IMG/VR virus record: IMGVR_UViG_3300010376_000047
Span: 1-48,651 of that record
Direction: 5' to 3' (one strand)
Source of the DNA: a virus
Lineage: Duplodnaviria > Caudoviricetes
Length of the DNA stretch: 48,651 nucleotides
Shown here: positions 33,516 to 48,651 of the stretch, piece after piece
How the letters are laid out: the number at the start of each line of letters is the position of its first letter
Numbering within the stretch: position 1 is the stretch's first letter
Notes under the pieces: generated by a model
Databases searched by the model: none
What the model saw: only the letters and a program-made list of their open reading frames with translations
What the model was told of the DNA's origin: nothing
Translations under genes and position numbers: made by a program

Positions 33516-34618
33516 CTCGTCTCTTCCGTGTAGATGGTATGAGCGTCGTAAGGATCCCATGTCTTCGACGCGAGCGCGCGCATCTCTGTCCAGTCCGCGC
33601 CGATCTCGTGTAGCTCGCAGAAGTCGAAGCACCAGCAACCAGGGCAAGTAAACTGGCCCTGATTCTTATACGCCGAGAGCGGTGGCCCGAAGCCGAGCCG
33701 CCCTTCACGACGTACATCTTCCATATCTCGGAACTCCGCGAGTACCTGAGCCCGCGCCATCGCACGCTCGTTGAAGTCGCGGAATATCTCGGTGCGCGTG
33801 AAGTACGGCGCGGGTTGCTTCTTGCTGACCGTACCGTCTTTGTTGAGCGAGAATCCACCCTCATCCTTCGGGCGCTCGTCCGGAAAGGCTTTACGGAGAT
33901 GGTTGTAGATCATTCCGGACGGTCGCTGGTCGGGCTTGAGTAGCCCGTTCGCGTAGATCCAGTCAAGTCCCCACGTCCAGTAACCTGTCGCCTGCGAGTC
34001 GAGCGAGAGGTACATGACGTTGATCGTCTTCGCGGTTTTGTGATCGACAATATGGATCTTCCCGGTGACCCGATTGCGAATGATCAGGTCGAGCGTACCG
34101 ACGTAGATGAACCACGGTTTGCCCGTCACCGGGTGATTGACGACTTGCTGGAACGGTTGCTCTGTGACGAGTACCTCCCACTCGTCGTCCCGCCCGTAAT
34201 GTTTGACGTAGTGGTCGAGCATCGCGACGCCTAGCTCGCGAGCTTCGGCCCAAACCTCGTCCGCTTCCAAGTCGTCAACGCGGAATCCGAACTCACCCTG
34301 CGCTTTGGATTCCTCATCGTAGTAGCGGACGAATGAGTCAGACGGATGGGGGCCACGGCGGACTCCTTTCTTGTAGTAGTCCGCGAGCGCCATATGGACG
34401 AGCGATCCGAACCTCAGAGGCGGCACCGGTGTCTTTGGTTTGAGTACCTCTTCGAACTCCATCCACCACTTCCACCGGCACCGCTTGAAGGTACCCCGTT
34501 CGGACGTACGCAGCATAGGTAGGCCGTCGCGCGGTGTAGCGTGTCGGGTCGCAACGACGGCCCGCCTATGCTGCGCCAAGTCAGCACGGCGTCTTGTACG
34601 CTTGATCGATGTACTCAC
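33512..34618 (-). CDS. Cas4-like / PD-(D/E)xK exonuclease
   Basis: SERGTFKRCRWKW, GSLVHMAL, GTLDLI...IVDHKT, C-terminal CPGCWCFDFC. Confidence 0.85.
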   Translation of the reverse strand: MSTSIKRTRRRADLAQHRRAVVATRHATPRDGLPMLRTSERGTFKRCRWKWWMEFEEVLKPKTPVPPLRFGSLVHMALADYYKKGVRRGPHPSDSFVRYYDEESKAQGEFGFRVDDLEADEVWAEARELGVAMLDHYVKHYGRDDEWEVLVTEQPFQQVVNHPVTGKPWFIYVGTLDLIIRNRVTGKIHIVDHKTAKTINVMYLSLDSQATGYWTWGLDWIYANGLLKPDQRPSGMIYNHLRKAFPDERPKDEGGFSLNKDGTVSKKQPAPYFTRTEIFRDFNERAMARAQVLAEFRDMEDVRREGRLGFGPPLSAYKNQGQFTCPGCWCFDFCELHEIGADWTEMRALASKTWDPYDAHTIYTEETR

Positions 34619-34734
34619 GTGGAATCCTCCTTGGTTGACCCTTCACTTCAGGAGCCGCCCGACACTCGGCTACTCCCCCGCGCGCTCAACCGCCCCGGCC
34701 GCAAGACTCCGGAGCGGCGAGCCGCGCTAGTCGA

Positions 34735-34763
34735 AGCCTACCGGATCCGAAGTTGAAAGTCTA
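34735..34763 (-). promoter_or_regulatory. sigma70-type promoter for the replication operon
   Basis: TAGACT-N17-TAGGCT on the - strand, upstream of the Cas4-like gene. Confidence 0.6.
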
Positions 34764-34954
34764 ATCTCCGCTCCGAGCGGGGTTTTTACGTTGGAGTCCA
34801 CTATACGCGGGACGAAACTGGTTTGAGTTGACAGCCTCGCGCGCGGTAATACCGCACGCCCGCGAGGGCAGCTACCGGCGGAGTCTCGTGTACGCGCGTA
34901 TATGCGCGGACGCGACAAGTGAGCAAGTAGCAGCCTCGCGAGCGTACGATATTA

Positions 34955-35014
34955 GAGGGATGGGGCAGCCCCGTACGAAGTACGGGGCTGGTTGCCCATT
35001 TGGTACCCATCCTC
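34955..35014. other. strong hairpin (terminator or small RNA)
   Basis: CAGCCCCGTAC-GAA-GTACGGGGCTG, with GGATGGG/CCCATCC outer pairing. Confidence 0.55.
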
Positions 35015-35234
35015 ACTCCTTGAACCAGCTGCCCATCGCCTTTAGCTCGGCTTGGGACAACTCTGTCGGGGCGTCTTCAGATACATCCACACGCCGTTTC
35101 CGACCCTTCGGCGGGTTGTTTCGCCTTTCCATCTCCGCCACCTTCTTCTCTGCCAGATCTCTGACGCCACGCTTGACGCCGTAATAGCAGCCGATGACGA
35201 AGGTGATGATACTGATGAACACTAGAACGCTCAT
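35013..35234 (-). CDS. small membrane protein
   Basis: N-terminal TM followed by a basic tail. Confidence 0.65.
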   Translation of the reverse strand: MSVLVFISIITFVIGCYYGVKRGVRDLAEKKVAEMERRNNPPKGRKRRVDVSEDAPTELSQAELKAMGSWFKE

Positions 35235-37009
35235 GCCTTCACCTTCTCCTTGAGGATCTGACGTCGCAGGTCAAGGACGTTCTTGTTCACTTCGAACTTG
35301 TCGTCGTTGACCTTCTTGATGTACTCTTCCACAGTTCCACGCGACCGATAGACGAGGGCCGTCACTTGGTGATTTCTCGTTGTATCGACCGCGCGGTCAG
35401 TGACCTGAGTCTGATCGTCCGGGTTCCAGGTCTCATCGAGTACGTGAACGTCACTCGCTCGATTCAACGTGATCCCGACACCGGCTGCCGCAGTCACCAG
35501 GATCGCGACCCGTACCCGACCGGCTTGGAAGTCGGCCATGATGCGGTTGCGATCCTTCTGCTTGACTGCGCCCGAGATGATCTCACACCGGATACCTACC
35601 CGGTTCAGGTACTTGTAGATCATCTCAGCGGTCTCGCGGAACTGGCTCGCGATGATCGCCTGGTCGTCACCCTCCGGATCCGCCGGATCAATCCCGCGTT
35701 CTGCAAGCTTGTCCAGCAGCATCGGGATCTTCCCGGATTCCTCGGTGGCCTTGACCTTCATATCAACGCGCCCGGTCTCTTCATCTACGCCGAGAACCTC
35801 GACTGAGCACTTGTGGTTCGCGAACTGCTTGAGCCTCGTATACTCAGCCAGGATTGAGGTAGCGGAGAGATGATACTCATCGATGCGAACTTCTGCCGCA
35901 TTGGCGAACTCGGTATATTGAGCCGCCTGCTTCGGGGTCATATCGCACCAGACATCGATCCACTGCGTCTCAGGCAGCTGCGGCAGGACTTCAGAACGAA
36001 GCCGCCGAACTGCATGAGGAGCTAGAGCCTGGTAGAACGCATCCTCGCGACCCTTGATGATGTTCCCGATCTGCTTGTGGTTGCCCCAGGTCGTCTCGAT
36101 CACCAGCCACTGAGCAGCCCATCGCCACTTTGATGTATACTTCTCAGGTTCCAGCCAGTGGAGTGCGCCCCAGAGCTTGATCGGCTTACCACCCATCGGT
36201 GTGCCGCTCAGAGCGTACTTCCGTTGAGCCTTGATCGCCTTCGCCACCTTCGGGAAAGCGTTGGTCACCACAGGCAGCCCCGTCTTATGGAACTCGTCAA
36301 TCGTGAATGAGTTCCACTCGATCTTCGGGAAGTTGCCTCGACGGATCATGTCCGCCGTCGTGACGAACCAGAACGGCTTTCCATCCTTCAGGCAGCGATC
36401 TACGACACGTTCACAGTCGGCCTTCTCCGCAAGGTTCAGGTCTCCCGAGAACGTTACCACGGTATGATCAGTCCACCGTTCGATCTCCATACGCCAAACA
36501 CTGTCCAGCGTAGACTTCGGCGCGACGACGAGATGACCGCCGTTCTCCAAATCAGCTTCGAAGACTGAGGCGATCACCTCAGTCGTCTTGCCGAGTCTAG
36601 GCTCCAGTAGATTGAGGCACGAAGTCGTCGCCATGAACATCACGTCAGCCCGCTGGTACGGACGAAACCACTTCGCAAGCTTGGGGAGCTTCTTGTACAG
36701 CTTCATACTCTTCAGCGGCGCATCGTCCGCGACCGCCAGAGTCTTCAGGCTGCTCTCCTTCTTCACCTGCTTGCGACCCCACTGCTTGAGAGCGTTCCCG
36801 AGTTGGAGACCTTCTCCAAACTCCTCGCGAAGACGCCTCATGACAACGAGATCGAGTGGCAGCGTCCACTTCGGGCCACCGTTGTTCGCATTCACGAACT
36901 TGGCTCCGAGAGGCTTCAGCCGGTTCATCGCCAGTACAGCATCAGGGCTGTACCGGAAATGTACCTCGCAGCGATCACCCTCTTCTGTTAGCTCGGCGAA
37001 CGCTTGCAT
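35231..37009 (-). CDS. SNF2/SF2 helicase
   Basis: RPYQ, PRLGKT, IDEFH, SGTP, GVGITL...QVTDRA; ATG 37009 has RBS AAGGAG. Confidence 0.88.
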   Translation of the reverse strand: MQAFAELTEEGDRCEVHFRYSPDAVLAMNRLKPLGAKFVNANNGGPKWTLPLDLVVMRRLREEFGEGLQLGNALKQWGRKQVKKESSLKTLAVADDAPLKSMKLYKKLPKLAKWFRPYQRADVMFMATTSCLNLLEPRLGKTTEVIASVFEADLENGGHLVVAPKSTLDSVWRMEIERWTDHTVVTFSGDLNLAEKADCERVVDRCLKDGKPFWFVTTADMIRRGNFPKIEWNSFTIDEFHKTGLPVVTNAFPKVAKAIKAQRKYALSGTPMGGKPIKLWGALHWLEPEKYTSKWRWAAQWLVIETTWGNHKQIGNIIKGREDAFYQALAPHAVRRLRSEVLPQLPETQWIDVWCDMTPKQAAQYTEFANAAEVRIDEYHLSATSILAEYTRLKQFANHKCSVEVLGVDEETGRVDMKVKATEESGKIPMLLDKLAERGIDPADPEGDDQAIIASQFRETAEMIYKYLNRVGIRCEIISGAVKQKDRNRIMADFQAGRVRVAILVTAAAGVGITLNRASDVHVLDETWNPDDQTQVTDRAVDTTRNHQVTALVYRSRGTVEEYIKKVNDDKFEVNKNVLDLRRQILKEKVKA

Positions 37010-37283
37010 CTTTGCCTCTCCTTCTACCTCGGTAGATTGCATAGACTTCACTGCCGCGTGCAGCGAACTCCCAGACATGGTTCGGCTCGGGGATGTTCAC
37101 TAGACGCGCGTGCAGGTTCGACTGGAGCTTATTCGCGTGCATGGGTGTCTCACAGGTGTAAACCAAAGCCCACCTGTTCGGGTTCTCGACGAGCGGCTGG
37201 AGTTGCACCATCCACTTACCGAACATTCCACCACGCTTGCGAGGAGGCTCCTTGACGAACTGCACCTTTTGTTCCTCAGGCAT
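36975..37283 (-). CDS. hypothetical protein
   Basis: MPEEQKVQF...; preceded by the conserved extended RBS. Confidence 0.7.
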   Translation of the reverse strand: MPEEQKVQFVKEPPRKRGGMFGKWMVQLQPLVENPNRWALVYTCETPMHANKLQSNLHARLVNIPEPNHVWEFAARGSEVYAIYRGRRRGKDASVRRANRRG

Positions 37284-37298
37284 AGTACCCTCCTTTTT

Positions 37299-37475
37299 CT
37301 TGACGGCCAGGAACACGCCCGGAGTTGAACCGGGAATACCCGTCGTGTTCAGAAGTAGTTGGGGGATCCGGGGAGGGTACCAATCCGACCCGGATCCCCC
37401 TTCGCCGCCGCCAGGGCAGCGGATCTACCCGGCGCGGCGAGCTTGTAGGCTGGTGTATAACGCTTTCCCAGCCTC
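37299..37475 (-). ncRNA. multi-hairpin structured RNA with anti-RBS loop and T-loop-like arm
   Basis: Four consecutive hairpins including GGGGGATCCGGG/CCCGGATCCCCC and CCCGG-TTCAACT-CCGGG. Confidence 0.55.
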
Positions 37476-37479
37476 TAGC

Positions 37480-37749
37480 CTAGCCGATCTCCCGCCTAGC
37501 CGGTACGCGGCCTGTACGGAAGCAATAGGGACAGCTGCGACCGATGATCACAGTCGGTAAAACCTGCTGTCCTTTCTTTACACGGAATGGCCGTAACCAT
37601 TCACGTTCGGCTACCAGGAACGGACGGTCACCCATCGTCCCTGGGCAATCCTTTCGACCGCATCTGACGATCAAGAAGCCGGGGAAATCCTTGCTTCTCG
37701 TCGCCTGGTACAGAGGCAGCCGACTGACGAACTCTTCTTGCGTTCTCAT
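37480..37749 (-). CDS. small Zn-finger protein
   Basis: CGRKDC...CPYC. Confidence 0.65.
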   Translation of the reverse strand: MRTQEEFVSRLPLYQATRSKDFPGFLIVRCGRKDCPGTMGDRPFLVAEREWLRPFRVKKGQQVLPTVIIGRSCPYCFRTGRVPARREIG

Positions 37750-38339
37750 CGCTTGATCCTTTCAAACGCCAGTCGATAGGTGCAGAGGAAATCCTCCACT
37801 TCATCCGGATCCTTGTTCCGCAGTATGGCCGGCAAAAGCTCCTCAGGGAACGTCTGCCAACAACCTCGCGTACTCAAGCCGAGAGCTTTGATGCCCGCCT
37901 GTGTTCCAGCGTGCAGGTAGATCCGCTCTGGCTTCAATCCAAGGAACGCTCCGAACCGTACAGCTACATCGTACGTCGTCATTGGCCCGATGCCTTTCGG
38001 CGCTCGGAGATCGATGGCGTTGTACAGCTGTCCGAAAGTCTCGGACTTGACCAGAGCATTGATGGAGTCAACTAGCTTACGCTCCAACTCAGGCAACGCC
38101 GGACTTACCTTCGACTGATGGTTGTGCATCTTTCCGTTTGGACGCTTGCTGCGCACCGCTCGACGCAGCGCGTCTAGTGCTGTTATGTCATGCGCACAAG
38201 CGTCCGGAATGTCATCTCGGAATCGACACACTGGGCTCGCGGGATCTCGTCGCCGCCGCTTGAAGTCGTACCACAACGCTGTCATGGTAGTCATCTCGGC
38301 GCGCGGTGGATCACGCTCCCATTCCTTCAGAATGTCCAC
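37746..38339 (-). CDS. HhH-fold protein (glycosylase / aGPT-pyrophosphorylase-like candidate)
   Basis: KGIGPMTTYDVAVRFG...YLHAGT...EVEDFLC; GTG start after the extended RBS. Confidence 0.55.
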   Translation of the reverse strand: MDILKEWERDPPRAEMTTMTALWYDFKRRRRDPASPVCRFRDDIPDACAHDITALDALRRAVRSKRPNGKMHNHQSKVSPALPELERKLVDSINALVKSETFGQLYNAIDLRAPKGIGPMTTYDVAVRFGAFLGLKPERIYLHAGTQAGIKALGLSTRGCWQTFPEELLPAILRNKDPDEVEDFLCTYRLAFERIKR

Positions 38340-38404
38340 TCGGTACCCTCCTTTGTTTTGGAGCATGGGCTCCAACCGTCCCTACTGCTAGGGACGGCTG
38401 CAGC

Positions 38405-38608
38405 TCACCTTCCAGTCCGTCTTGGATCTTCGAAGCGGATGTCGGCGGCAGCCAATGTCCGGTATCCGCCTGGGTCGGTATAAATCTGGATCAGTGACTT
38501 TTTGCGCCGCATTATGTAACCGTCCCTGTCGAACGTCCCTGCGGGCAAGAACTGCTTGAAGCTGATAATCAGGAATGGCCCTGTTACGAATGGATCCAGG
38601 GTATCCAA
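38405..38608 (-). CDS. hypothetical protein (start uncertain)
   Basis: Frame is open from about 38716 but the first standard start is TTG 38608, without a clear RBS. Confidence 0.4.
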   Translation of the reverse strand: MDTLDPFVTGPFLIISFKQFLPAGTFDRDGYIMRRKKSLIQIYTDPGGYRTLAAADIRFEDPRRTGR

Positions 38609-38697
38609 CCTGACTATGATCCAGACCCGGCGACCAGGACGAAGGTATTTTTCAACCTCCTCCTGGTCACCGGTTCTGATGGACTCCGCGACTGCCG

Positions 38698-39210
38698 TTA
38701 GGAAGGGTTGTTCGACCTACCGGCACGCCGCTCCGCGCGGGTGCGAGACCGACGCGGGGTTGCGGCAGCGCTCGCGCGCTTGCCGGTGGTCGTCTTCCCA
38801 GCCGAGCTTGCCCGGCCGCGTCCACGACGAGTCGTGGTCTCCTCGGCCTCCTCGGCATCGCCGTTGTCGGCCTTCGAGCGGCGACCGCTCACGACGCTGT
38901 TCTCTGCGTCGCCGTGAAGCTCCTTGGCCTCGGCCACGGAGATGCCGGCCCTGGCAGCGACCAGTTCCCAGCGCAGACCCTCGACGTCACGCATCCGGCG
39001 GATGCTCGCCTCGGTGTCCGGCTGCTCGCTGTACTCGCCGCCCGCGACCAGAGCCTTGCTCCATGCGAGCGAGGAGATCTGGCCGACGGTGACGCCCAAC
39101 TCCTGCGCCGCCTCGGAGTGGCTGGTGATGCCCGAACGAACGAGCCGCTCCAGCTTCTCCGGGGTGACCGGGTTGGTGTCCTCTGCAGGCTGTCGTCTTG
39201 CTCTTGCCAT
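38698..39210 (-). CDS. double-HTH protein with basic, histone-like C-terminal tail
   Basis: SHSEAAQELGVTVGQIS and LRWELVAARAGISVAEA; R/S/T/A-rich tail; has its own promoter. Confidence 0.75.
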   Translation of the reverse strand: MARARRQPAEDTNPVTPEKLERLVRSGITSHSEAAQELGVTVGQISSLAWSKALVAGGEYSEQPDTEASIRRMRDVEGLRWELVAARAGISVAEAKELHGDAENSVVSGRRSKADNGDAEEAEETTTRRGRGRASSAGKTTTGKRASAAATPRRSRTRAERRAGRSNNPS

Positions 39211-39257
39211 TGTTGCTCCCTCCTATTCTTACGGTTGAATGGTACCCTGCGACGTAG

Positions 39258-39286
39258 AGTATATCGCATGGGGGTGTTCCCGTCTA
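39258..39286 (-). promoter_or_regulatory. sigma70-type promoter
   Basis: TAGACG-N17-TATACT; hexamers identical to the 46483-46511 promoter. Confidence 0.75.
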
Positions 39287-39366
39287 GTCCATTTTTCCAG
39301 GGACTTTCTGGGGGAGAGTTGGATGACCCTCCGAACCGCCCGCCGTTACGCGGGCGACTCGCGGGG

Positions 39367-39654
39367 TCACCGCAGCTTCATCGTACGAAATGTCTTCCGG
39401 ATCTTCCGTTGGAAGTACGATCCGGTTGACACCGCATACGCACAAGCGACGACGCGCTGACGCGAAACGCCGAAGTACGCATAGCGGCTTCCATCCTTGA
39501 ACTGCACGACCATCCAGCGGTCGTGAATCACTCGCGGCCAACCCACCCACTCGATGTTCGACGACAGTACGCGCCGAATGTTCAGGTGAAGCGGGCCGGT
39601 CTCGGTGATGACCGTATGCTGGCCTTTCGGCTCCCAGCTCATGTCGAGAGGCAT
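39367..39654 (-). CDS. KTSC-domain protein
   Basis: SSNIEWVGW...VQFKDGSRYAYFGV...AVSTGSYFQRKIR. Confidence 0.8.
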   Translation of the reverse strand: MPLDMSWEPKGQHTVITETGPLHLNIRRVLSSNIEWVGWPRVIHDRWMVVQFKDGSRYAYFGVSRQRVVACAYAVSTGSYFQRKIRKTFRTMKLR

Positions 39655-40196
39655 TACTGATCGCCTCTACAAACCGGGCCGATCCCGAGTTGCCGGCTCA
39701 GTTCGTCGGTGAGCGTGCGGCCGCAAACGTAGCAGCGACCGATCTCGCGACCGAACCTGGGCCCTGCATCCGGATCCGCCTTGATCGCTTCCAGGATGCG
39801 CGTTCGCTCATCCCGGTTCTGGATCGGATAGCGGGTGTCGGATGCCCAGACGTCAACGAACGTCCGGCTGTGGCCGTTCTTCACGCTGTAGAACATCAGC
39901 GTGCCGTCAGGCTTCTCGATTGCGTAGCGACCGTCGCCGACGCCATCGATGGCCTTGCCGGCCTCACGCGGCTTCCAGGGAAGCGCAACCAGCGTCTCGA
40001 TGACCTGACTGACGCGAGCCTTCGGAAGCTCGGTGGGGAAGCTCATGTCGGTCTCGTTGAGCCAGACAATCTGGATCTCGTTGAGGCTCGACAGATCCTT
40101 GCCGTCACGCAGAGCGCGTAGATAGTCCATCTGCGGCTCGGTGGCGGTAGGGCCGGTGTTCCGGAACTGATCCGGAACTTGCGACCTTTTGACCAT
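39654..40196 (-). CDS. DUF6011-like Zn-ribbon protein
   Basis: GRCYVCGRTLTDELSRQLGIGPVC. Confidence 0.75.
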   Translation of the reverse strand: MVKRSQVPDQFRNTGPTATEPQMDYLRALRDGKDLSSLNEIQIVWLNETDMSFPTELPKARVSQVIETLVALPWKPREAGKAIDGVGDGRYAIEKPDGTLMFYSVKNGHSRTFVDVWASDTRYPIQNRDERTRILEAIKADPDAGPRFGREIGRCYVCGRTLTDELSRQLGIGPVCRGDQ

Positions 40197-40262
40197 TTTG
40201 GTACCCTCCTTCTGGAGCGTTATTGCTCCGGAACACCCGCCGTGACGCGGGTGAACCGCAAC

Positions 40263-40448
40263 CTAACGCTTCAGGAAATCCTCCAGATACTCGTACAGAG
40301 CGACGACATCTGGATGCTGAAGTTCTACGATTGCGACCGACTGCGGATCCTCGATGCCAATCACGAGCGATCCCTTGTCGGTGGTCGCCAGGTCGATTGA
40401 CCTGTCGTTGTCAACGCCGATCTCGATAGTGACCTTGTTGTACTGCAT
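40263..40448 (-). CDS. hypothetical protein
   Basis: 61-aa ORF translationally coupled to its neighbour. Confidence 0.55.
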   Translation of the reverse strand: MQYNKVTIEIGVDNDRSIDLATTDKGSLVIGIEDPQSVAIVELQHPDVVALYEYLEDFLKR

Positions 40449-40771
40449 CAGTCCCTCCCGAAGCCGAGCGGCAAGTCCATGCCCTCGGCGTTCTCGACTA
40501 CCAGCTCAACGTCGTTCCAGTTCCCGAGCGGGTCATCTCTGACCGACTCGATGTCGAGTCCGGTGATCTCAGCGAGCTTCTGGCCCATCGCGCTGTCCTG
40601 AAGGTTCTCAGGAAGGTTGTCGAACCAGTCTTCATACTCGCCACGGATGTCTTCCAGATCGGACAGCGCGCCGACCAACTCGTCGGCTGCCGCCAGGATC
40701 TTGTCGTACTCACTACGGCATTTCGCCGCAGCCTCTTCCCAGCGAGCACTTCTGCTCTTCTGCTTAGGCAT
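40448..40771 (-). CDS. acidic helical hypothetical protein
   Basis: MPKQKSRSARW...DNLPENLQDS; RBS GGAGG. Confidence 0.65.
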   Translation of the reverse strand: MPKQKSRSARWEEAAAKCRSEYDKILAAADELVGALSDLEDIRGEYEDWFDNLPENLQDSAMGQKLAEITGLDIESVRDDPLGNWNDVELVVENAEGMDLPLGFGRD

Positions 40772-40772
40772 G

Positions 40773-41750
40773 TTAGCCTCCCAGCTGCTTCTTACCCTGC
40801 TGCGGCTTGACGCCACGGCCAGGTGAGGACGAGATGTTCGCCTTCGCGCCAGCCGACCGCCCGCCGCCATAGGCTGCGGAGTCGAACTTGCGGTTGTCAC
40901 GAACGAGCGCGTACTTGCGACCGCTTGACGCAGTCACCGGGAACTCCGACATCATGAAGTCCCGATTGATCTGGCCCTGATCGCGGAGCGCGAGTTCCAT
41001 GCCGCCGGACGCATCCTTCTTGACCGTGTCCGCTCGCATGTCGTCGAGCCGCGATCCAATCGCATTGGCGAACCCAGCGCCGAAGTTCCGGCGATAGGTG
41101 TTCCAGTTGGCGTAGTCTTGCTGTACGCCGGTGCGCTTGCACCAACGCCTGTACGCGTGAGCGCACAGATGTCGAGCCTTGTCGGTGGTGACGTCGGTAT
41201 GGAAGCCATGCTGTTGCATAAGCGCCGCCGTCTCCAGCCAGTTCCAGCCAGCCTCCTTGAAGGTTCTGAGGTTCTCCTCATAACCCTTGTTCGGATCGTA
41301 CTTGGGACGGATCTGATCGACCAGCTGAGTCATCAGGCTGGTGAACAGAAGAGTGAACCATCCCAGGTCAGACTCCGTACCGATGACCGGCACTGTGTAG
41401 CTGGCGTACTCGCGCCGCTCGCCGCTGTAGTGTTGCTTATGGAACACGACGAGACAACCGCAGTACCGCGCTGTTGCGAGGAACATCGACCAGAGCGGAT
41501 CTGCGATCTCCGAGAATCCGCCAGCCTCAAACGCGAACTTGTAGTCAAAGTCGCGAATGACCGGCTCGCGCTCGGAGATCCTGCCCGTCTGGTGCTGCTG
41601 TACTTCCCAAAGCTCGATGCGATGACGCATCATAAGCTCGTCGGCCTTGGCGATGAACGTATCACGCTCAGCTTCGAACGTGGTAGCTTCCGCCTTGGCC
41701 AGCAGGGCTTGGATCTTCCGCAGAAGATCCGAGTTGCTGGTTGTACTCAC
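40773..41750 (-). CDS. DUF2786-domain protein
   Basis: N-terminal RKIQALLAKAEAT...AKADELMMRHRI; C-terminal YGGGRSAGAKANI. Confidence 0.75.
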   Translation of the reverse strand: MSTTSNSDLLRKIQALLAKAEATTFEAERDTFIAKADELMMRHRIELWEVQQHQTGRISEREPVIRDFDYKFAFEAGGFSEIADPLWSMFLATARYCGCLVVFHKQHYSGERREYASYTVPVIGTESDLGWFTLLFTSLMTQLVDQIRPKYDPNKGYEENLRTFKEAGWNWLETAALMQQHGFHTDVTTDKARHLCAHAYRRWCKRTGVQQDYANWNTYRRNFGAGFANAIGSRLDDMRADTVKKDASGGMELALRDQGQINRDFMMSEFPVTASSGRKYALVRDNRKFDSAAYGGGRSAGAKANISSSPGRGVKPQQGKKQLGG

Positions 41751-41830
41751 TTGGTACCCTCCTTTTATTGATTACGGTTTGATGGACATAGCGTCCGGCG
41801 CGCGTCACCTTTCGATGACGCCGCCGCGCG

Positions 41831-42085
41831 CTATGAGCCGTCGTTACGCAGAACTCCGATGCTCACCAGATACGCTTTGTAGATCGGGAACACTGCACGC
41901 CGAGTGCGAACATCGATGGCGTAGTTGTTCCGTTGAAGAACCGCACAGGCTTGCTTCAGCGGCGAGTCACGCCACTTGGGGCCTTTCGGATTCTCCACTT
42001 CCATCTTCAGCTTGTAGTAGATCTGTAGCAAGCCGAATGCCCGGATCTGATCCGGGGTGTCGAGGATGAAGCCCTCGTCACTCAT
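41831..42085 (-). CDS. hypothetical protein
   Basis: 84-aa ORF with ATGA coupling. Confidence 0.6.
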   Translation of the reverse strand: MSDEGFILDTPDQIRAFGLLQIYYKLKMEVENPKGPKWRDSPLKQACAVLQRNNYAIDVRTRRAVFPIYKAYLVSIGVLRNDGS

Positions 42086-42303
42086 TGTTCATGCTCCTGT
42101 AGTCGAACGACGAGCTTGTCGTGCTTCTCAGCGAGGTAGATGATTGCTGCCCTCGCGTCGTACAGAGTTGAGATCACGTCCGTCCAATCCAAGTCCTTGT
42201 CGGACGATGCTCTCTCGGTGAACCGTTCGATGGCCTTGTCCAGCCACTCGATGTCGCTGACGACCGACGCCGGAATGTTCCGAACGATCTCCTCAGGATC
42301 CAT
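42082..42303 (-). CDS. hypothetical protein
   Basis: 73-aa ORF in operon. Confidence 0.6.
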   Translation of the reverse strand: MDPEEIVRNIPASVVSDIEWLDKAIERFTERASSDKDLDWTDVISTLYDARAAIIYLAEKHDKLVVRLQEHEQ

Positions 42304-42511
42304 CTTCGATCCTTATGGAGTCTTGAAGGAACTTCCACTCGGGATGTTCGTCAGCGTTCTTGTTGATCCACTCCTCGACCTTGCTCTCATCGAACGAGTT
42401 GAAAGCAATCTCCAATCCGTCGAACGGATCAGTCGGATCATAGGAGTAGATGCCCGTCGGCGTTGCCGCCTCAGGACGCCAGATGACCGCGACGTACAGA
42501 CGCTTCTCCAT
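42293..42511 (-). CDS. hypothetical protein
   Basis: 72-aa ORF with TGATG coupling. Confidence 0.6.
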   Translation of the reverse strand: MEKRLYVAVIWRPEAATPTGIYSYDPTDPFDGLEIAFNSFDESKVEEWINKNADEHPEWKFLQDSIRIEDGS

Positions 42512-42720
42512 CAGTTGTCCCTGACGATGACGATCTGATCGGTGCGGATCATGTGCTCCTTATGAGCACCAGGGCCATTCTTGGCGACGAACTTGATCCA
42601 CTCGACGCCATGCTCATCCATGAAGACTTCCGCCTCGTTGGTGAACAGAACGGTCTCCATCCCAGGCGCGAACAGAATGCGCATGGGGTAGCCCAGGATG
42701 ATATTCCCGGACTCGTTCAT
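42511..42720 (-). CDS. hypothetical protein
   Basis: 69 aa; preceded by the extended RBS. Confidence 0.7.
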   Translation of the reverse strand: MNESGNIILGYPMRILFAPGMETVLFTNEAEVFMDEHGVEWIKFVAKNGPGAHKEHMIRTDQIVIVRDN

Positions 42721-42796
42721 ACGGTACCCTCCTTTTGGTTACGTGATCGGACATCCGAACACGAGGCCGCACCGAGTGACCGGTGCGACTTCCTGC

Positions 42797-43126
42797 TCAG
42801 AACTCCGTCAACTCAGCTTCGCCGCCACAACGCTTGCAGCGGAAGTAAGTTGATTGGCCGGCATAGGCTTCGATCTCATGCTTGCCGTGAGGCTTATTCC
42901 AATCAGGACATTCGCCTTCGGCATCGTAGCCTTCCAGATTGCCGTAGCAGGTTCCCTTGCGGGAATGCTCGACGCGCAGGATGATGTTCTCAGGCTTGGT
43001 CGAGACCCATGCACCGCAGAACTTACAGTGCAAGAGTTCCTGCCAAGGCTCGTGATCATCCCAGGGTGGCTCGCGAGTCACCCATGCGTCATACGCGCGA
43101 GCGTCGATGCCCGAGTGACTGTACAT
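42797..43126 (-). CDS. Cys-rich Zn-ribbon protein
   Basis: CKFCG...CKRCGG. Confidence 0.65.
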   Translation of the reverse strand: MYSHSGIDARAYDAWVTREPPWDDHEPWQELLHCKFCGAWVSTKPENIILRVEHSRKGTCYGNLEGYDAEGECPDWNKPHGKHEIEAYAGQSTYFRCKRCGGEAELTEF

Positions 43127-43127
43127 C

Positions 43128-43721
43128 TCAGACCTTGTTACTCGGGCTCAGGTTGTGATACTGCTCGACGATCCAGGAATGAACACCGTCGTGGAATGAC
43201 TCGGTGTAGACGGCAAAGAGATCCTCTTCACCGTCGTCACCGTAATGTCCGACGACATCCTGGCAGATCTGCTCCCAGTTGGGATCATCGGCGAACTCAC
43301 CGCCAACTCGCGGCTCGGGAAGTGAATCCAGGATCTCAGGATCTCCTTCCTCAATGCCGGTGAGGATCTTCGAGAGGAACATGAACGGCTCAGGCGTGTT
43401 GCCGTCGATCATCCAGGACGCAGCGTTGCGTCCATCTTCGCGACCACGCTCGCGCATGTCACGGTATTCCTTCTCAGGAAGCCGCACTGTCATGTCGATG
43501 ACGTTGTCGTTGTTGATCTCGGACACACGATTGGCGTACTCGCCGAACAGGTGATGGTGGAGCGTCTGGATGTCGGACAGCGTTGCGTAGTGCAAGAAGT
43601 TCTGCACAGCAACACCGACTTCCTTGCTGCTCACTACGAAGCCACCGCCATCGTGATCAACGGTATGGACTTCGCGGCCATCATCCTCTACTCTCATCGA
43701 GTAGATCGCTCTGACCTTCAT
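43128..43721 (-). CDS. acidic hypothetical protein
   Basis: 197 aa; preceded by the extended RBS. Confidence 0.7.
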   Translation of the reverse strand: MKVRAIYSMRVEDDGREVHTVDHDGGGFVVSSKEVGVAVQNFLHYATLSDIQTLHHHLFGEYANRVSEINNDNVIDMTVRLPEKEYRDMRERGREDGRNAASWMIDGNTPEPFMFLSKILTGIEEGDPEILDSLPEPRVGGEFADDPNWEQICQDVVGHYGDDGEEDLFAVYTESFHDGVHSWIVEQYHNLSPSNKV

Positions 43722-43799
43722 TTGGTACCCTCCTTTGTTTTCTCAGTCCGTGTCCAGTATGAACACGAGGCGACGGGCATGAAGCCCGTCACTTCCTGC

Positions 43800-44033
43800 T
43801 CACTTACTGGCCTTGCTCTTCTCCCACTTCTTGAACTCTGAGGCGGTGAAGTAGTACGGGACTTGCTCTTCGATCTGCTTCAACGCAAGATCGCACTCAG
43901 CGTCGTTGTTCGCGTCGTACAATCCATGGGCGCACGCACTATCGAGTACGTCCATCGCGATGTCATGCGGATCGAGCGGGCTGCCGTTCTCCTTGAAGAG
44001 ATTGATCATCTCCTCGATGATTTCCTCCAACAT
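43800..44033 (-). CDS. hypothetical protein
   Basis: MLEEIIEEMINLF...; coupled start. Confidence 0.6.
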   Translation of the reverse strand: MLEEIIEEMINLFKENGSPLDPHDIAMDVLDSACAHGLYDANNDAECDLALKQIEEQVPYYFTASEFKKWEKSKASK

Positions 44034-44308
44034 CACGCAGCCTCCTCGACCTTGAGCCACTTCTTGATGCCGGCCTTCAGCATCTCGTCAGGACAGCAAG
44101 CGTCGAAGTGCGGATTGAGGACAACCTCGTACCGCAGCTTCGTGTTGCTCCTGATCCGGATTTGACGCTTCGTCCGCAGGTTCGTGGCGTTCCATCCGCC
44201 GTACATGCTCTCGCCGTCGATCCGAATGATCGACAGCTTGCCATACGGGGATGACGTGTGCTTGATGGCGTAGTAACCGCCGACCTTGACGTGCTTCTTC
44301 TTGATCAT
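44033..44308 (-). CDS. basic hypothetical protein
   Basis: MIKKKHVKVGGYY...GGWNATNLRTKRQIRIRS. Confidence 0.65.
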   Translation of the reverse strand: MIKKKHVKVGGYYAIKHTSSPYGKLSIIRIDGESMYGGWNATNLRTKRQIRIRSNTKLRYEVVLNPHFDACCPDEMLKAGIKKWLKVEEAA

Positions 44309-44568
44309 CAGTCCACTTCCCATCCGTCGTCGAGCAGTTCATCGACGTTCTTGAAGACATGCATCTTACTGTCCTCACCGATGTCGCCGAAGATCGTGGT
44401 GTTGAGCTTGACCTGGATGGGATCGTTCTCACCAATCTTCTCCATGCCAGCGTACACCAGTGCCGTCTCCATGAACCCATCGCGGTAACGCTTGATGGGC
44501 AGCACCAAGTGCGGCCACTTGAACGGGTCGAGGATCATATTGCGATGATCCTCTCGCGTATGGTACAT
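44308..44568 (-). CDS. hypothetical protein
   Basis: MYHTREDH...LLDDGWEVD; preceded by the extended RBS. Confidence 0.7.
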   Translation of the reverse strand: MYHTREDHRNMILDPFKWPHLVLPIKRYRDGFMETALVYAGMEKIGENDPIQVKLNTTIFGDIGEDSKMHVFKNVDELLDDGWEVD

Positions 44569-44670
44569 TGGTACCCTCCTTTGGGCATTACGTGATCGCG
44601 GATTGCGAACACGAAGCCCCAAAGCATGCTTTTTTCTAGGCTCTCTTTTTCACGCTTTGGGACTTCCTAC

Positions 44671-44808
44671 TCACATCTCGCGCTTGATTGATTCCTTGCG
44701 GTCGCGTCTGTGTCGATTTGACCGCGCCTTGTCCTCAGCTTTCGCTATGGACTTGGATCTGCTGCCCGAGGCGATCTGTAGCTGCTTGCCTTTCAGCTTT
44801 TTGCTCAT
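44671..44808 (-). CDS. 45-aa highly basic peptide (absent from the ORF track)
   Basis: MSKKLKGKQLQIASGSRSKSIAKAEDKARSNRHRRDRKESIKREM*; ATGA overlap. Confidence 0.55.
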   Translation of the reverse strand: MSKKLKGKQLQIASGSRSKSIAKAEDKARSNRHRRDRKESIKREM

Positions 44809-45158
44809 TCGATGATCGCCTTGAACTCTTCGGGGATGAGCCCGAGCCGCTTGAGATCCTTCATCAAGCGGTATGTCGCGCCGAGCAGGTCGTTGAAGTC
44901 ACTGGATGTCAAGCGGTCGATCTTCGTAACCTTGCCATGCCAGTGCTCCATTGCCTCGTCCGGAGGAGTTGCCCACGGCGGCAGCTTCATCCAGCCACCA
45001 TCGCCATGCACATACTCTGCAGCTTTTCCCAAGCTTCCTGCCATCTCAGGCTTGACTCGCCATTCGACGTACTCCGGGCCTTCGTCATCCGATTGCGTCA
45101 CAACGTAACGCATCTCGTAGATGACGTCGTCATCGGGATCGTGCCAAGTAAACATCAC
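44805..45158 (-). CDS. hypothetical protein
   Basis: 117-aa ORF in operon. Confidence 0.65.
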   Translation of the reverse strand: MMFTWHDPDDDVIYEMRYVVTQSDDEGPEYVEWRVKPEMAGSLGKAAEYVHGDGGWMKLPPWATPPDEAMEHWHGKVTKIDRLTSSDFNDLLGATYRLMKDLKRLGLIPEEFKAIIE

Positions 45159-45319
45159 TTGGCCTTTCCGGTCGTTGTCTTGATGGCCTTGTCAACCTCG
45201 ACCTTCAACTGCTTGAGTTGAGCGAGCGTGAGGTTGCCTTGAAGGCAAAACATGCCTTCGTCGATGCCGAGAACGTTGAACGTACCCGAGCCATTCTCGA
45301 CTGGAATGACCGATATCAT
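45155..45319 (-). CDS. 54-aa hypothetical protein (absent from the ORF track)
   Basis: MISVIPVENG...KTTTGKAK*; preceded by the extended RBS. Confidence 0.6.
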   Translation of the reverse strand: MISVIPVENGSGTFNVLGIDEGMFCLQGNLTLAQLKQLKVEVDKAIKTTTGKAK

Positions 45320-45393
45320 TTGGTACCCTCCTTTTGGTTCCTTGCCGTACGCGGTTGCGTACGGGAAGGCACTCTATGAGTGCCAACCCCTAC

Positions 45394-45534
45394 TCAAGCG
45401 TACTTGCGATGCTCCCATAGGATTGCCGCGAGGTATTTGACTTTTTCCCAACGCGACATTTCTTGGCCGAACTCATCGATGTCGCAACGACGCATATTCC
45501 AATCGATGAGCCAGGACTCGATCCAACGGTACAT
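45394..45534 (-). CDS. 46-aa hypothetical protein (absent from the ORF track)
   Basis: MYRWIESWLIDW...EHRKYA*; preceded by the extended RBS. Confidence 0.6.
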   Translation of the reverse strand: MYRWIESWLIDWNMRRCDIDEFGQEMSRWEKVKYLAAILWEHRKYA

Positions 45535-45554
45535 TGGTACCCTCCTTTATTGAG

Positions 45555-45881
45555 TTAGTCTTGCTCGTTCTCGTATGTCGCGCCGAGATGCTCTAGGCAA
45601 CGACCCTTGCTAAGCTCGTTCTTGACGCAGCGATGGCCGCCGCGAACGATCTTTATGAAGTACGTCTCGGCTTGACCTGGTGCCGGATTGGTTCGGCGCT
45701 TGCGAATCAGTTGCTCTTTGCCGCCGATGACGTAATCGCATTGGCGGTTGACGAATACCTCACTTGGCTTCGACTTGCGTCCTTGACCGCGCGGAGCGAT
45801 CAAACCAACGCTAAGTCCGTCGGCGTTCTTGCGGGCGAGCATCTTGTTGCGCGCGCGTAGACGCCTCGTTTGCTGATCCAT
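45555..45881 (-). CDS. basic Zn-binding-like protein, first gene of the leftward early operon
   Basis: MDQQTRRLRARNK...C...C...CLEH; variant extended RBS. Confidence 0.65.
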   Translation of the reverse strand: MDQQTRRLRARNKMLARKNADGLSVGLIAPRGQGRKSKPSEVFVNRQCDYVIGGKEQLIRKRRTNPAPGQAETYFIKIVRGGHRCVKNELSKGRCLEHLGATYENEQD

Positions 45882-46477
45882 TGCGGTACCCTCTTTCATT
45901 CGGTTGCGGAGCTACGCTCCATCCAGCGCCCGTTCGTTTGGGCGCTCGATGGAACGGTCGCGGCCATCCTCGACCGCGACCGCCCCGACCGTAAAGGAGG
46001 GGGTACCATATAGAGTTTTCAAGCTGCGCCAAGGATCGCCTTCATTCGGTCATAACCTCGTCCTACCGTTTCCCCGGAAAGCCAACGCCGCCGCACTAGA
46101 ACGGGGGTCGGTGGTCATCACGCTCCGGACGCGACGGTTCGAGAGCTTCATACCTTGGGGGATTCTTTTACCTATCGGTTCAAGCCCTGGCCGGGATCGC
46201 CCAACAGCCGCCGTCACGGTTGGCTACTTGCCGCCATACCCTTATCCTTTGAAGATTCGACCGTCCGTATCCGTCGCGCGCCGCTCTCCCGAGCGATACC
46301 GCTTTCTCCCGGTTTTCACCTTACTAGCATTGCTACTTGCCGGGCCGGACTCGGACTAGAAGACGCCGGGAACTAGCTCCGTTCCCGGCGTTTCAATCCT
46401 TGAGTTTTCAAAGAACGGGCGGGGAAGGCTCTTACAACTCACTTCCACTTCCCCCGAGCCGTCGTCTCGACGGCTCG
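45882..46477 (-). ncRNA. ~600-nt structured leader / candidate large ncRNA
   Basis: No credible ORF; multiple hairpins, two boxA-like motifs and an anti-RBS segment downstream of a clear promoter. Confidence 0.5.
46400..46417 (-). promoter_or_regulatory. rrn-type boxA antitermination element
   Basis: CGTTCTTTGAAAACTCAA about 60 nt downstream of the promoter. Confidence 0.6.
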
Positions 46478-46482
46478 CCTAG

Positions 46483-46511
46483 AGTATACCGGAAGCAAAC
46501 ATTGCCGTCTA
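46483..46511 (-). promoter_or_regulatory. sigma70-type early promoter
   Basis: TAGACG-N17-TATACT. Confidence 0.75.
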
Positions 46512-46534
46512 GGGTAGCAGTAGGGCGATTCTAA

Positions 46535-47105
46535 TGCTCCTCTAATGTAGTTTTTACGGTTGTATTGGGGTTGGATGCTTGGGGTATACATAGGGGATTA
46601 CTTTTCACGTGATGGGGATTACTTTTCACACGGCGTATATGTTTTGAATATGTTGTTGCAGGAGATCCTTGGTGTGGCCTGAGGTGGTCGAGGATTGGGC
46701 AATATGGGGGCAAAAAACCGGCATAGTTGAGGCTGGAATGAGTTGGGACGATTTTAGGCACGTTTTGAGTACGTTTTTACACTGTTTTGACATGTTTAGT
46801 GTACAATGGCCACGTTTTTTAGCTTTGTTTGAACTGTAATGGTTCTGTTCTTCGCGAAATGGCTTGAGTTGAGATGTAGAAAGCGCGCGCATGTCAAACC
46901 ATTGTACACGCGTATATACGCTCGGCGGTGTATTTTGGCATGAGTTGCGGTGGCCACACATGCGATTTGCCATGCTCATGCACATTTTATGGGCTTTGCA
47001 TTGAGTTGACGTGCTTACCGTGTGTTGAGTTGTGTTGAGTTGACAGGGCGCCACGACCCATTGGCGCAAGCCAATACAACCGCGCCAACCCATCGAGGCA
47101 ACTCA
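46535..47105. other. AT-rich, G/T-skewed noncoding region with repeats (candidate origin or genome terminus)
   Basis: GGGGATTACTTTTCAC x2; TTGAGTTG repeats; several 9-12 bp inverted repeats; lies at the strand switch. Confidence 0.55.
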
Positions 47106-47223
47106 ACTAATCGAATCCGAACTAAACTCTAAGGTAGCTCTAAGGTAGAGCGCGTACCCTACGGGTAACGAAAACGAAGTCGCGGCCGGGCGGATCCCGC
47201 GCCGCGCGGAAGGAGTTAGGACG

Positions 47224-47694
47224 ATGGATAAGGCTCTCGATAAGGCGAAGAAGACGGCTCGGACGTTCTACGCTCGCGAGGAGAAGGCGAACCCGGCCGG
47301 GTTCCCGTTCTCGCCCGCGAACGCGACGAAGGCGGCGGCGAAGGCGAGCGGGATCCCCGCGTCGCGGCTCGTTCCCGTCGTCGCGGCCGTTTACTACGAG
47401 GAGAACGGGAAGCGCGCGCCGCTCTCGTTCGCTCGCGGGAAGGCGACGCCCGCCGCGATTCGCTCGGCCGTCGCGAAGGCGCGCGACGCGGGCGGACGGC
47501 TCGGGCGCTGGGAAGTCCTCGCGGTTCGGCTCGGCGTCGCGCTCGGCCGTCCGGTCTCGGTCTCGGAAGTCCGCGCGCTCTACGTCGCGGCCGGGAAGGA
47601 TCTCGACTCGTCGTATACGGGTCGCGGGACTCGGGCGGGCGCGACGAAGACGCGGACGGACGAACTCGCCGCGCTCGACTCGGCGACGAAGTAA
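47224..47694 (+). CDS. basic HTH-like protein encoded by a CA/TG-free gene
   Basis: RBS AAGGAG; own terminator; similar to 38698-39210; no His, Gln or Cys. Confidence 0.8.
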   Translation: MDKALDKAKKTARTFYAREEKANPAGFPFSPANATKAAAKASGIPASRLVPVVAAVYYEENGKRAPLSFARGKATPAAIRSAVAKARDAGGRLGRWEVLAVRLGVALGRPVSVSEVRALYVAAGKDLDSSYTGRGTRAGATKTRTDELAALDSATK

Positions 47695-47715
47695 GCTCGC
47701 GCGTATTCTCGCCGG

Positions 47716-47746
47716 AAAACGGCGGCCGAAAGGCCGCCGTTTTTTT
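47716..47746 (+). terminator. Rho-independent terminator
   Basis: AAAACGGCGGCC-GAAA-GGCCGCCG-TTTTTTT. Confidence 0.9.
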
Positions 47747-48083
47747 ATCCCTCGGGACTCCGTTGACATGGGGCTGGGCGCTCGGGATGAAAATCAATAT
47801 CCACCCTTTAGCATGTGTGCTGCGCCACCCATCACCCACCCATCCAGGAACCATCCAACACCACCCCTAAAAAAATCCAAATCAAACCACCCTATATACG
47901 CGGAGGCGAGGCAGGCAACTCTTCCGCGCGCCCGAGTCAGCGCGAGTATATAGCAATTGGATACGCATCTTCGAACCGGGTCGGGCGGGCGCGTAATATA
48001 CTCGCGCGGACGCGGAAGTTGACCAAGAGCGGGCCACGCGCGCGTACGATATACTAGGACGACCGAAAAGAAAGGAGTGCTGG

Positions 48084-48437
48084 ATGGCACCCAGAGCTAG
48101 ATCCGCTTCGAAGCAACTCTCAGGCGAGGATCTGTCATACCTGGCCGGCATTTGGGAGGCGACCAACGGACTGCGTGGAGTCGGTACTGGCGCAGCCGTG
48201 GCCATCTCCGACACGGAGGCGTGGCCAAAGGCGATGGCTGAGAAGTATGGAGGCAGCCATGAGCAGTTCACGTCAACGAAGGGAAAGCAGTATTGGGGAT
48301 GGTATGTCCCGATCAAGCGGAGGCTTGAAATCGCGGAACAAGTCAGAGACCACACCATCGCCACCGACCAGGAACGGTATGACAAGGTCTGGGCCAAGCT
48401 TTCTCGGGCGGCTAACAACTCCGAATATTCGGAGTGA
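48084..48437 (+). CDS. degenerate LAGLIDADG-like protein
   Basis: DLSYLAGIWEATNG helix, later YGG...YWGWYV; RBS AAAGGAG. Confidence 0.6.
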   Translation: MAPRARSASKQLSGEDLSYLAGIWEATNGLRGVGTGAAVAISDTEAWPKAMAEKYGGSHEQFTSTKGKQYWGWYVPIKRRLEIAEQVRDHTIATDQERYDKVWAKLSRAANNSEYSE

Positions 48438-48565
48438 ACCCGTAAATAGCGGGATTTCAATACTAGACTCCAAACATCGAGTCGGCTAGAATCGAGTTAC
48501 GGATCCGGGGTGGTGCAGACGAGTCCCGCCCCGGATCCTGACTCGCAAACCAACAAAGGACAACA

Positions 48566-48651
48566 ATGGGCGATGTAGCCAGGGCGCTTCTCATGAAGAT
48601 GTGTGCGGAGGCGACCATCGAAGCAGTGGACAATCTACTTCAGACCAGCCA
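48566..48651 (+). CDS. 5' end of a hypothetical protein (partial)
   Basis: AAAGGA RBS, ATG at 48566, open to the window end. Confidence 0.5.
   Translation, partial: MGDVARALLMKMCAEATIEAVDNLLQTS

Follow-up and report, generated by a model that had tools for sequence, protein, structure and literature searches.

A 13-nucleotide ribosome-site address before ten early genes of a myovirus and a candidate antisense hairpin that carries its complement

The virus record IMGVR_UViG_3300010376_000047, a stretch of 48,651 nucleotides (nt; 48.7 kb) that was analysed whole and is called the window below, carries ten early genes on its - strand that are each introduced by a copy of the same 13-nt motif, AAGGAGGGTACCA, here termed the address, and a predicted hairpin (hairpin A) whose loop holds the reverse complement of that address. 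The genes for tail sheath, tube and baseplate, all on the + strand, are those of a myovirus, and a DnaE-type polymerase, a primase-helicase and a helicase are encoded on the - strand. The window is probably part of a genome of approximately 60 kb, since a locus with an identical helicase (L392) sits on 59,909 bases and complete relatives measure 59-64 kb. Cultured phages with a match to the helicase all infect Actinomycetota (201/201; 29-34% identity among the 30 matches listed), from which we infer an actinobacterial host. A search of genome contigs with the helicase alone found no relative, and a search of them with the helicase alignment gave a single 37-residue match, in an Acidimicrobiia bin.

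A scan of the window for the address, allowing up to two mismatches, returned 13 matches compared to a mean of 0.52 and a maximum of 5 in 100 dinucleotide shuffles. Ten of these are - strand matches within 37283-45896 (six exact, three with one mismatch and one with two), each 0-4 nt ahead of an ATG or GTG that opens an open reading frame (ORF), which bears out the ten copies directly before start codons that the initial annotation had reported for a leftward array at 37-46 kb:

45884-45896 (-), address copy with two mismatches, before gene 1 (45881-45555)
45535-45547 (-), exact address copy
45321-45333 (-), exact address copy
44569-44581 (-), exact address copy
43723-43735 (-), exact address copy
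42722-42734 (-), address copy with one mismatch
41752-41764 (-), exact address copy, before a DUF2786 gene
40199-40211 (-), exact address copy, before DUF6011 and KTSC genes
38341-38353 (-), address copy with one mismatch
37283-37295 (-), address copy with one mismatch, a variant ending TACT, before a gene for 102 amino acids (aa) after hairpin A; a variant form occurs in 12/12 loci with the tRNA-like arm described below

The core without variation spans about 11 nt (AAGGAGGGTAC) and the final bases are variable; the motif is a strong Shine-Dalgarno (SD) site plus a fixed spacer, common to ten early genes. The three further matches are an ordinary SD before the exonuclease gene (34620), a site not before a start (26353) and an antisense copy at 37370-37382 (+), which the first list of copies lacked. 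Two partial copies on that list proved not to be start-associated, as the one at 39240 directly follows the -10 box in a promoter-like site (39286-39258) and the ATG behind the one at 35001 opens just a 15-codon frame. None of the structural genes on the + strand is preceded by an address copy, in line with the earlier description. Most copies are preceded by long irregular stems. Long stems before several addressed starts (42740-42800, 43745-43800 and 44590-44670, all -) have the arm words GAGYAGGAAGT and CCTCGTGTTC in common, which occur 2-7 times each in 6/8 close genomes and are candidate processing sites.

On the coding strand of the early array the reverse complement of the address occurs once, in the loop of hairpin A, which lies between two further structures (all hairpins, pairing energies and folds given here are predictions from sequence):

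37361-37400 (-), hairpin A, candidate antisense RNA: a 12-base-pair (bp) G+C stem and a loop carrying the 12-nt reverse complement of the address (37372-37383); predicted fold dG -31, z -3.8
37403-37440 (-), stem-loop on the 5' side of hairpin A that may belong to the same RNA; predicted fold, arms varying among relatives
37311-37350 (-), transfer RNA (tRNA)-like arm directly 3' of hairpin A, with a 7-bp acceptor-like stem and a 5-bp stem with a T-loop-like loop; predicted processing signal, its fold alone not significant (z -1.1)

Exactly one antisense 9-mer is present on the coding strand of each of the eight whole records of the close clade (the window and seven close relatives), compared to 9-15 sense copies, and in all eight it lies in a hairpin loop, on a stem whose sequence varies and whose pairing is kept. 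Ranked by pairing energy with this loop, a partly circular measure, the nine core-bearing starts of the window take places 1-9 among 104 strong-SD starts, with a mean of -23.2 kcal/mol compared to -12.3 kcal/mol for the tail of 16S ribosomal RNA. Stem mismatches counted on the coding strand are G.T in 21 cases and A.C in 6 (11 loci versus 1 of 31 in a strand-symmetric count), a G-U bias that favours an RNA from the coding strand displaying the antisense word; the same counts disfavour a decoy on the opposite strand that would show the sense word. The loop is still a perfect complement in L007 and L008, whose neighbouring gene lacks an address, and in the other 12 close loci the address of the next gene is a weaker variant, suggesting that the loop acts in trans. 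A T-loop motif near the hairpin was found in 12/15 close loci, compared to 16 matches overall in 284 kb, and the tRNA-like arm occurs in exactly those 12 close loci whose next gene has the address, with approximately two independent losses. The arm has no anticodon stem, and L006 (9660-9735) has a longer, nearly full cloverleaf-like version. ARAGORN detected no tRNA or tmRNA, and an Rfam scan of 34000-48651 gave only three chance-level matches. The 102-aa gene after the hairpin matches only unnamed clusters.

Our survey of relatives started from 165 helicase loci, of which 84 reached no less than 6 kb beyond the helicase on its upstream side; discarding near-duplicates left 66, and 29 of these had a dominant address, defined as one placed before five or more starts in the locus. 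An apex loop matching the dominant address (8-12 complementary nt at the tip of a stem no shorter than 11 bp) was found in 25/29 of these non-redundant loci, with 214/4350 random positions (4.9%) passing the same test. Among relatives the address takes several forms (GGAGGGTACC, GGAGGGTACA, GGAGGGTCA, CCAGGGAGG, ACAGGGAGG and AAGGAGCCA), being kept in the close clade and different in more distant phages, and the loop changes alongside, in the following address and loop pairs:

GGAGGGTACC with loop GGTACCCTCC
GGAGGGTACA with loop TGTACCCTCC, in L046, L050 and L051
GGAGGGTCA with loop TGACCCTCC, in L025
CCAGGGAGG with loop CCTCCCTGG, in L016, L017 and L024
ACAGGGAG with loop CTCCCTGT, in L370 and L371
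AAGGAGCCA with loop TGGCTCCTT, in L032 and L033, which have too few upstream copies and stand outside the 29 loci

Each of six hand-chosen loops pairs best with the sites of its own phage, and the L016 loop binds the L370 sites more strongly than the L370 loop does. When all 512 possible SD-containing 9-mers were considered, only 0-5 per locus were represented at an apex, and these included the address of the phage itself in 5/8 loci tested. A quick helicase tree places 28/29 address-bearing loci in one clade, with the address types on separate branches. Four address classes have no palindrome, so the GGTACC palindrome to which the initial annotation drew attention is incidental, and models built on it (kissing dimers or a palindromic operator) are not general. 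The four misses are L406, which has the same hairpin with 10 pairs, one short of the cut-off, and L042, L029 and L030. L042 (1300-4600) is a distant relative with a self-complementary address, GAACCTAGGAGGTTCA. L029 and L030 are the two helicases of G009 (L215-L221), a 129.8-kb record that holds two related phage genomes in tandem and is possibly an assembly join.

Upstream of the array and between its genes lie the remaining features that bear on how such an RNA might be made and what it might meet:

46483-46511 (-), promoter-like site P1 (TAGACG-17-TATACT), with similar sites at the same place in several relatives
45885-46480 (-), structured leader of the early transcript, about 600 nt (z -3.75; no Rfam match), with two words that we take to be boxA-like (46402-46412 and 46013-46023)
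45989-46008 (-), element B, at the end of the leader behind P1: a second, bulged anti-address with an insertion of 2-3 nt (a 2-nt C insertion at these coordinates) and an end resembling the 16S anti-SD
45555-45881 (-), gene 1, a basic 108-aa protein with three invariant Cys, one His and an Arg-rich N-terminal helix, at the same place in 8/8 close records
39367-39654 (-), KTSC-domain gene (Pfam PF13619, E 3.5e-10), candidate helper protein and a lead only
39258-39286 (-), promoter-like site P2, which lies 1.9 kb ahead of hairpin A, with GGGTACCA after its -10 box; present in 13 close loci

Promoter-like sites numbered 5 compared to 4.4 expected, so they are weak alone; two conserved ones stand against ten address copies, with none at each copy. 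The GGGTACCA stretch after the P2 -10 box (39240-39257, -) has a GGTACC within 25 nt in 7/13 close loci, with GGTACC in several loci within the promoter spacer, and may contribute to a local hairpin or offer another site for pairing. The leader has conserved blocks in G001-G003 and a different version in G005-G007, and may itself be a large non-coding RNA. Element B is kept in 8/8 close records, in all of which it is predicted to fold in cis onto the gene-1 ribosome site, and class-matched versions occur in G008, G009 and G011-G013; none was found when one was looked for in G010. Gene 1, whose presumed likeness to lambda N was not confirmed by PDB, Atlas or fold comparison, gave no PDB sequence match, Atlas scores of at most 0.76, a model with a predicted template-modelling score (pTM) of 0.41 and no fold match, and was rejected as a lambda N-like antiterminator. 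The KTSC gene is found in 27/30 address-bearing loci and 0/36 others, at shifting positions and all within one clade; as a general partner it was rejected, being absent from 5/5 cluster K mycobacteriophage records and from L032, L033 and L388. Literature searches on KTSC function and on SPO1 RNase III sites returned nothing usable. Two basic proteins, encoded at 47224-47694 (+) and 38698-39210 (-), have by eye a short RWE-containing motif in common, and the latter has weak helix-turn-helix matches and relatives in 55/66 loci. Before the exonuclease gene lies a 390-nt stretch (34620-35010, -) that is apparently non-coding and contains hairpins.

The closest known counterpart of the address is the start-associated sequence (SAS) of the cluster K mycobacteriophages, a 13-nt extended ribosome site that precedes 10-20 non-structural genes and is conserved beyond 16S pairing (PMC3203893, PMC12699233, PMC11373665). 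The window shows the same traits, with a repeat a few nt before non-structural starts, in one orientation and extending beyond 16S pairing, and also has the lone inverted copy away from a gene start (37370-37382; one in 8/8 whole records), so that the likeness to SAS raised by the initial annotation is closer than was thought, in a different sequence. A single inverted SAS was noted in four K1 phages, with an RNA or protein reader left open (Pope et al., PMC3203893), the role of SAS was still called unknown in 2024 (PMC11373665), and the available text of PMC3203893, PMC12699233 and PMC11373665 gives no mechanism. Our folds of Anaya, Mdavu, Omnicron and Adephagia (4/10 cluster K records examined) place the inverted SAS at the apex of a hairpin. 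The lone Adephagia copy, at 58685-58694, falls between genes 92 and 93, the apparent start of late transcription according to section 19 of PMC11373665. Short BLAST searches with the cluster K hairpins matched 154 and 159 Mycobacterium phage records, at the level of the hairpin and not of individual loops. Inverted SAS copies in ZoeJ and Aminay were discarded as antisense candidates, as a start follows on the other strand and they read as ordinary sites of leftward genes. Adephagia gp39, listed with an Hfq-like predicted fold in Table 1 of PMC11373665, is a candidate RNA chaperone for SAS control. The two systems also differ. The window consensus AAGGAGGGTACCA is not within two mismatches, by eye, of the SAS consensus GGGATAGGAGCCC (PMC3203893), and the phage is unrelated to cluster K, being a myovirus with a DnaE polymerase and no integrase found in its relatives. 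The anti-loop is near universal and covarying in the myovirus clade, compared to 4/10 records in cluster K. The 17-bp inverted repeats called ESAS were not seen in the window, where no dedicated search was made for them and the regions upstream of the copies are variable RNA-type stems without a promoter each.

Taken together, these data suggest that hairpin A is probably a trans-acting antisense RNA, likely blocking translation of the addressed early genes. The hairpin RNA would be transcribed from P1 and/or P2 and accumulate, and the early transcript may be cut by an RNase III-type activity at the long stems before each gene, modelled on the processing of the T7 and SPO1 early regions. The loop would then pair with all ten sites over both SD and spacer, blocking ribosome entry. 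The fixed spacer would thereby provide specificity, as the predicted binding of the loop to addressed sites is stronger than that of the 16S tail by approximately 10 kcal/mol, sparing ordinary sites. Early genes would be switched down together, the sign of the effect being taken as repression, and the delay in hairpin production may set the timing from early to middle expression. Release of the hairpin from its transcript may involve RNase P acting at the tRNA-like arm, by analogy with the processing of C4 RNA described in PMC5320573. A shared address for coordinated translational control, as first proposed, is thus supported, with an RNA loop and not a protein as its likely reader. C-rich loops of 6C RNA bind many messenger RNAs (mRNAs) without a chaperone, which provides a precedent (PMC6486639).

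Several observations weigh against this reading. Fifteen of the positive loci form one close clade and the address types lie on separate tree branches, so the survey amounts to approximately 5-6 independent address types or events, not 25. The match in L388 is doubtful, lying inside a long ORF, the L414 loop complements just the non-SD half of its address, and L023 and L367 combine an ACAG address with a CTGG loop, leaving a terminal mismatch. L029 and L030 have 12 and 15 addressed starts, yet their homologous hairpin ends in a plain tetraloop and the exact anti 9-mer was not found in their record; likewise no anti-copy of the L042 address was found in its 58-kb record, G015. A plain folding-energy test does not tell the strands apart (15/33), the ranking of starts is less clean in other genomes (e.g., 2/7 in G008), and the target sites are only partly open in local folds (0.00-0.64). 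The promoters ahead of hairpin A are sigma-A-like and thus give no hint of late timing here. Of the nine whole cluster K genomes, five (Hurricane, ZoeJ, Aminay, Amgine and Bryler) carry 14-23 SAS cores without a convincing anti-SAS hairpin, although in Bryler a stem of 11 pairs bears a single 8-nt anti-SAS match. Boilgate lacks both SAS cores and such a hairpin. In Amgine and Bryler (L228 415-430; L233 370-386) a hairpin homologous to the K1 anti-SAS hairpin carries a drifted pyrimidine loop, which matches neither SAS nor any GGAAGGGAR site in the genome.

An alternative is the opposite effect, RNA-guided activation or protection, in which hairpin A or element B would bring in ribosomes, make the sites accessible or protect the mRNAs and so favour phage early mRNAs over those of the host. 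Element B would be transcribed ahead of all targets within a large, structured leader, has an end resembling the 16S anti-SD, changes with address class and holds TGGTAC in 8/8 records, even in the 4/8 where gene 1 has no GTACC; moreover, L029, which lacks the loop of hairpin A, has a B-like word before the array in its record. However, the pairing covers the SD itself and would compete with the 16S tail, the gene-1 site is predicted to capture element B in cis in 8/8 records, and the Adephagia anti-SAS hairpin lies in a late leader, which suits shut-off rather than activation. We therefore regard activation as unlikely, although it is the best placed of the alternatives. More improbable is superinfection exclusion, in which the hairpin RNA would mainly silence the early mRNAs of a second, related phage and divergence of the address would define exclusion groups. 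The heteroimmunity that C4 RNA confers in P1 and P7 through loop-target specificity (PMC12197685, PMC5320573) is a model for this, and address and loop do diverge together among lineages and cross-pair poorly, but the address is unchanged across phages at 67-88% helicase identity, slow for an exclusion code, and with no integrase in 5/5 complete relatives there is no sign of a lysogen.

Lower again in our estimation stands the view that hairpin A and element B are cis switches only, each pairing with the next gene's ribosome site and leaving the address to be read by something else. The fold of element B onto the gene-1 site would fit this, as would the copy at 37283, which is fully paired in the local fold including the loop, and the hairpins of L025 and L051, placed 50-90 nt ahead of an addressed start. 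Against it, the loop of hairpin A fits the array consensus better than its neighbour's copy, and it still matches the array where the neighbour has no address (L007, L008, L414 and the CCAG clade). A protein-binding site in either RNA or DNA, or a boundary for gene-cassette recombination like that of the PeSL cassettes, with the inverted copy as decoy or accident, is harder still to credit. Gene content in the array varies greatly (the 95 genes led by an address in eight genomes group into 50 families, of which 32 have a single member), the KTSC gene tracks the address and some genomes keep the address without the loop; on the other side, a decoy would show the sense word, whereas the G-U bias points to the strand displaying the antisense word, and not all address classes keep the palindrome. 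The recombination cassette boundary offered by the initial annotation also finds little support in copies with approximately 13 nt in common, in gene families that mostly keep their order where they are in common, and in a search of complete relatives that found no tyrosine integrase or serine recombinase in 5/5. Finally, a variant host 16S 3' end complementary to the whole motif, suggested by its near full complementarity to the canonical end (one base fewer, two swapped), can practically be dismissed and is largely refuted by a genome-contig search that returned 0 matches behind the helix-45 anchor compared to approximately 70,000 stretches with the canonical end. Relatives also use at least six different addresses, and other genes of the same phage do not use the motif. 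The host 16S end that the initial annotation named as grounds for refutation was thus sought and not found.

The preferred reading, antisense control by hairpin A, has features of trans-acting antisense small RNAs (sRNAs), namely a predicted single-stranded loop seed complementary to the target ribosome sites and covariation of seed and target across lineages, with L023, L367, L029 and L030 as exceptions. In T4, the RegB endoribonuclease attacks the SD sites of early mRNAs and switches the set off; RegB is a protein nuclease, whereas the reader in the window appears to be RNA. Nearest in mode of action is the C4 RNA of P1 and P7, a phage-encoded, relative-specific loop antisense that occludes ribosome sites in trans and is processed by RNase P (PMC12197685, PMC5320573). 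As described there, C4 targets the ant region in lysogenic immunity with two loops in a three-stem fold, compared to one loop and approximately ten dispersed sites in the window. The 6C (B11) sRNA of Actinomycetota, the probable host phylum, directs C-rich loops at G-rich regions of many mRNAs; it differs in being host-encoded, with two C-run loops, a loose target set and no private address, whereas the window has a single loop (PMC6486639). In the scan of 34000-48651 the hairpin matched neither the C4 nor the 6C Rfam model. PeSL cassettes of T4-type phages likewise place repeated regulatory elements before small, variable early genes, but these are promoters plus terminator stem-loops long enough to recombine (PMC2839356), whereas the window copies measure about 13 nt and have an antisense partner. 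No strong sigma-70 promoter accompanies each repeat in the window, and with regard to gene shuffling the array varies in gene content, mostly keeps its order and has the 13-nt block in common. Occlusion of ribosome sites by a loop is thus already known from C4 and 6C, and the arrangement in the window is antisense control of a distinctive design. No description of a phage RNA whose sequence complements an extended ribosome site recurring before the phage's own early genes was found in the main texts searched, which took in few subscription journals.

More tentatively, and with rather less confidence than in the hairpin itself, the locus may belong to a wider system in which a private address on the ribosome sites of a gene class is combined with re-programmable guide RNAs (an arm-freed hairpin, a leader segment resembling the 16S tail and possibly a KTSC helper) that select those mRNAs. 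Such a system would have arisen more than once, in the myovirus clade and in the cluster K mycobacteriophages, and would be the missing function of SAS; in its boldest form, the leader RNA would first favour the addressed mRNAs and the hairpin would later silence them. Extended ribosome-site repeats before phage early genes have been known since 2011, and the window adds a concrete partner together with natural compensatory changes. Because the locus supplies this partner and the same element occurs in cultured cluster K phages such as Adephagia, the SAS question becomes testable by a few point mutations. If true, this would add RNA-addressed translational timing of a whole gene class to phage biology, and would provide natural, mutually specific pairs of ribosome sites and silencers for Gram-positive synthetic biology.

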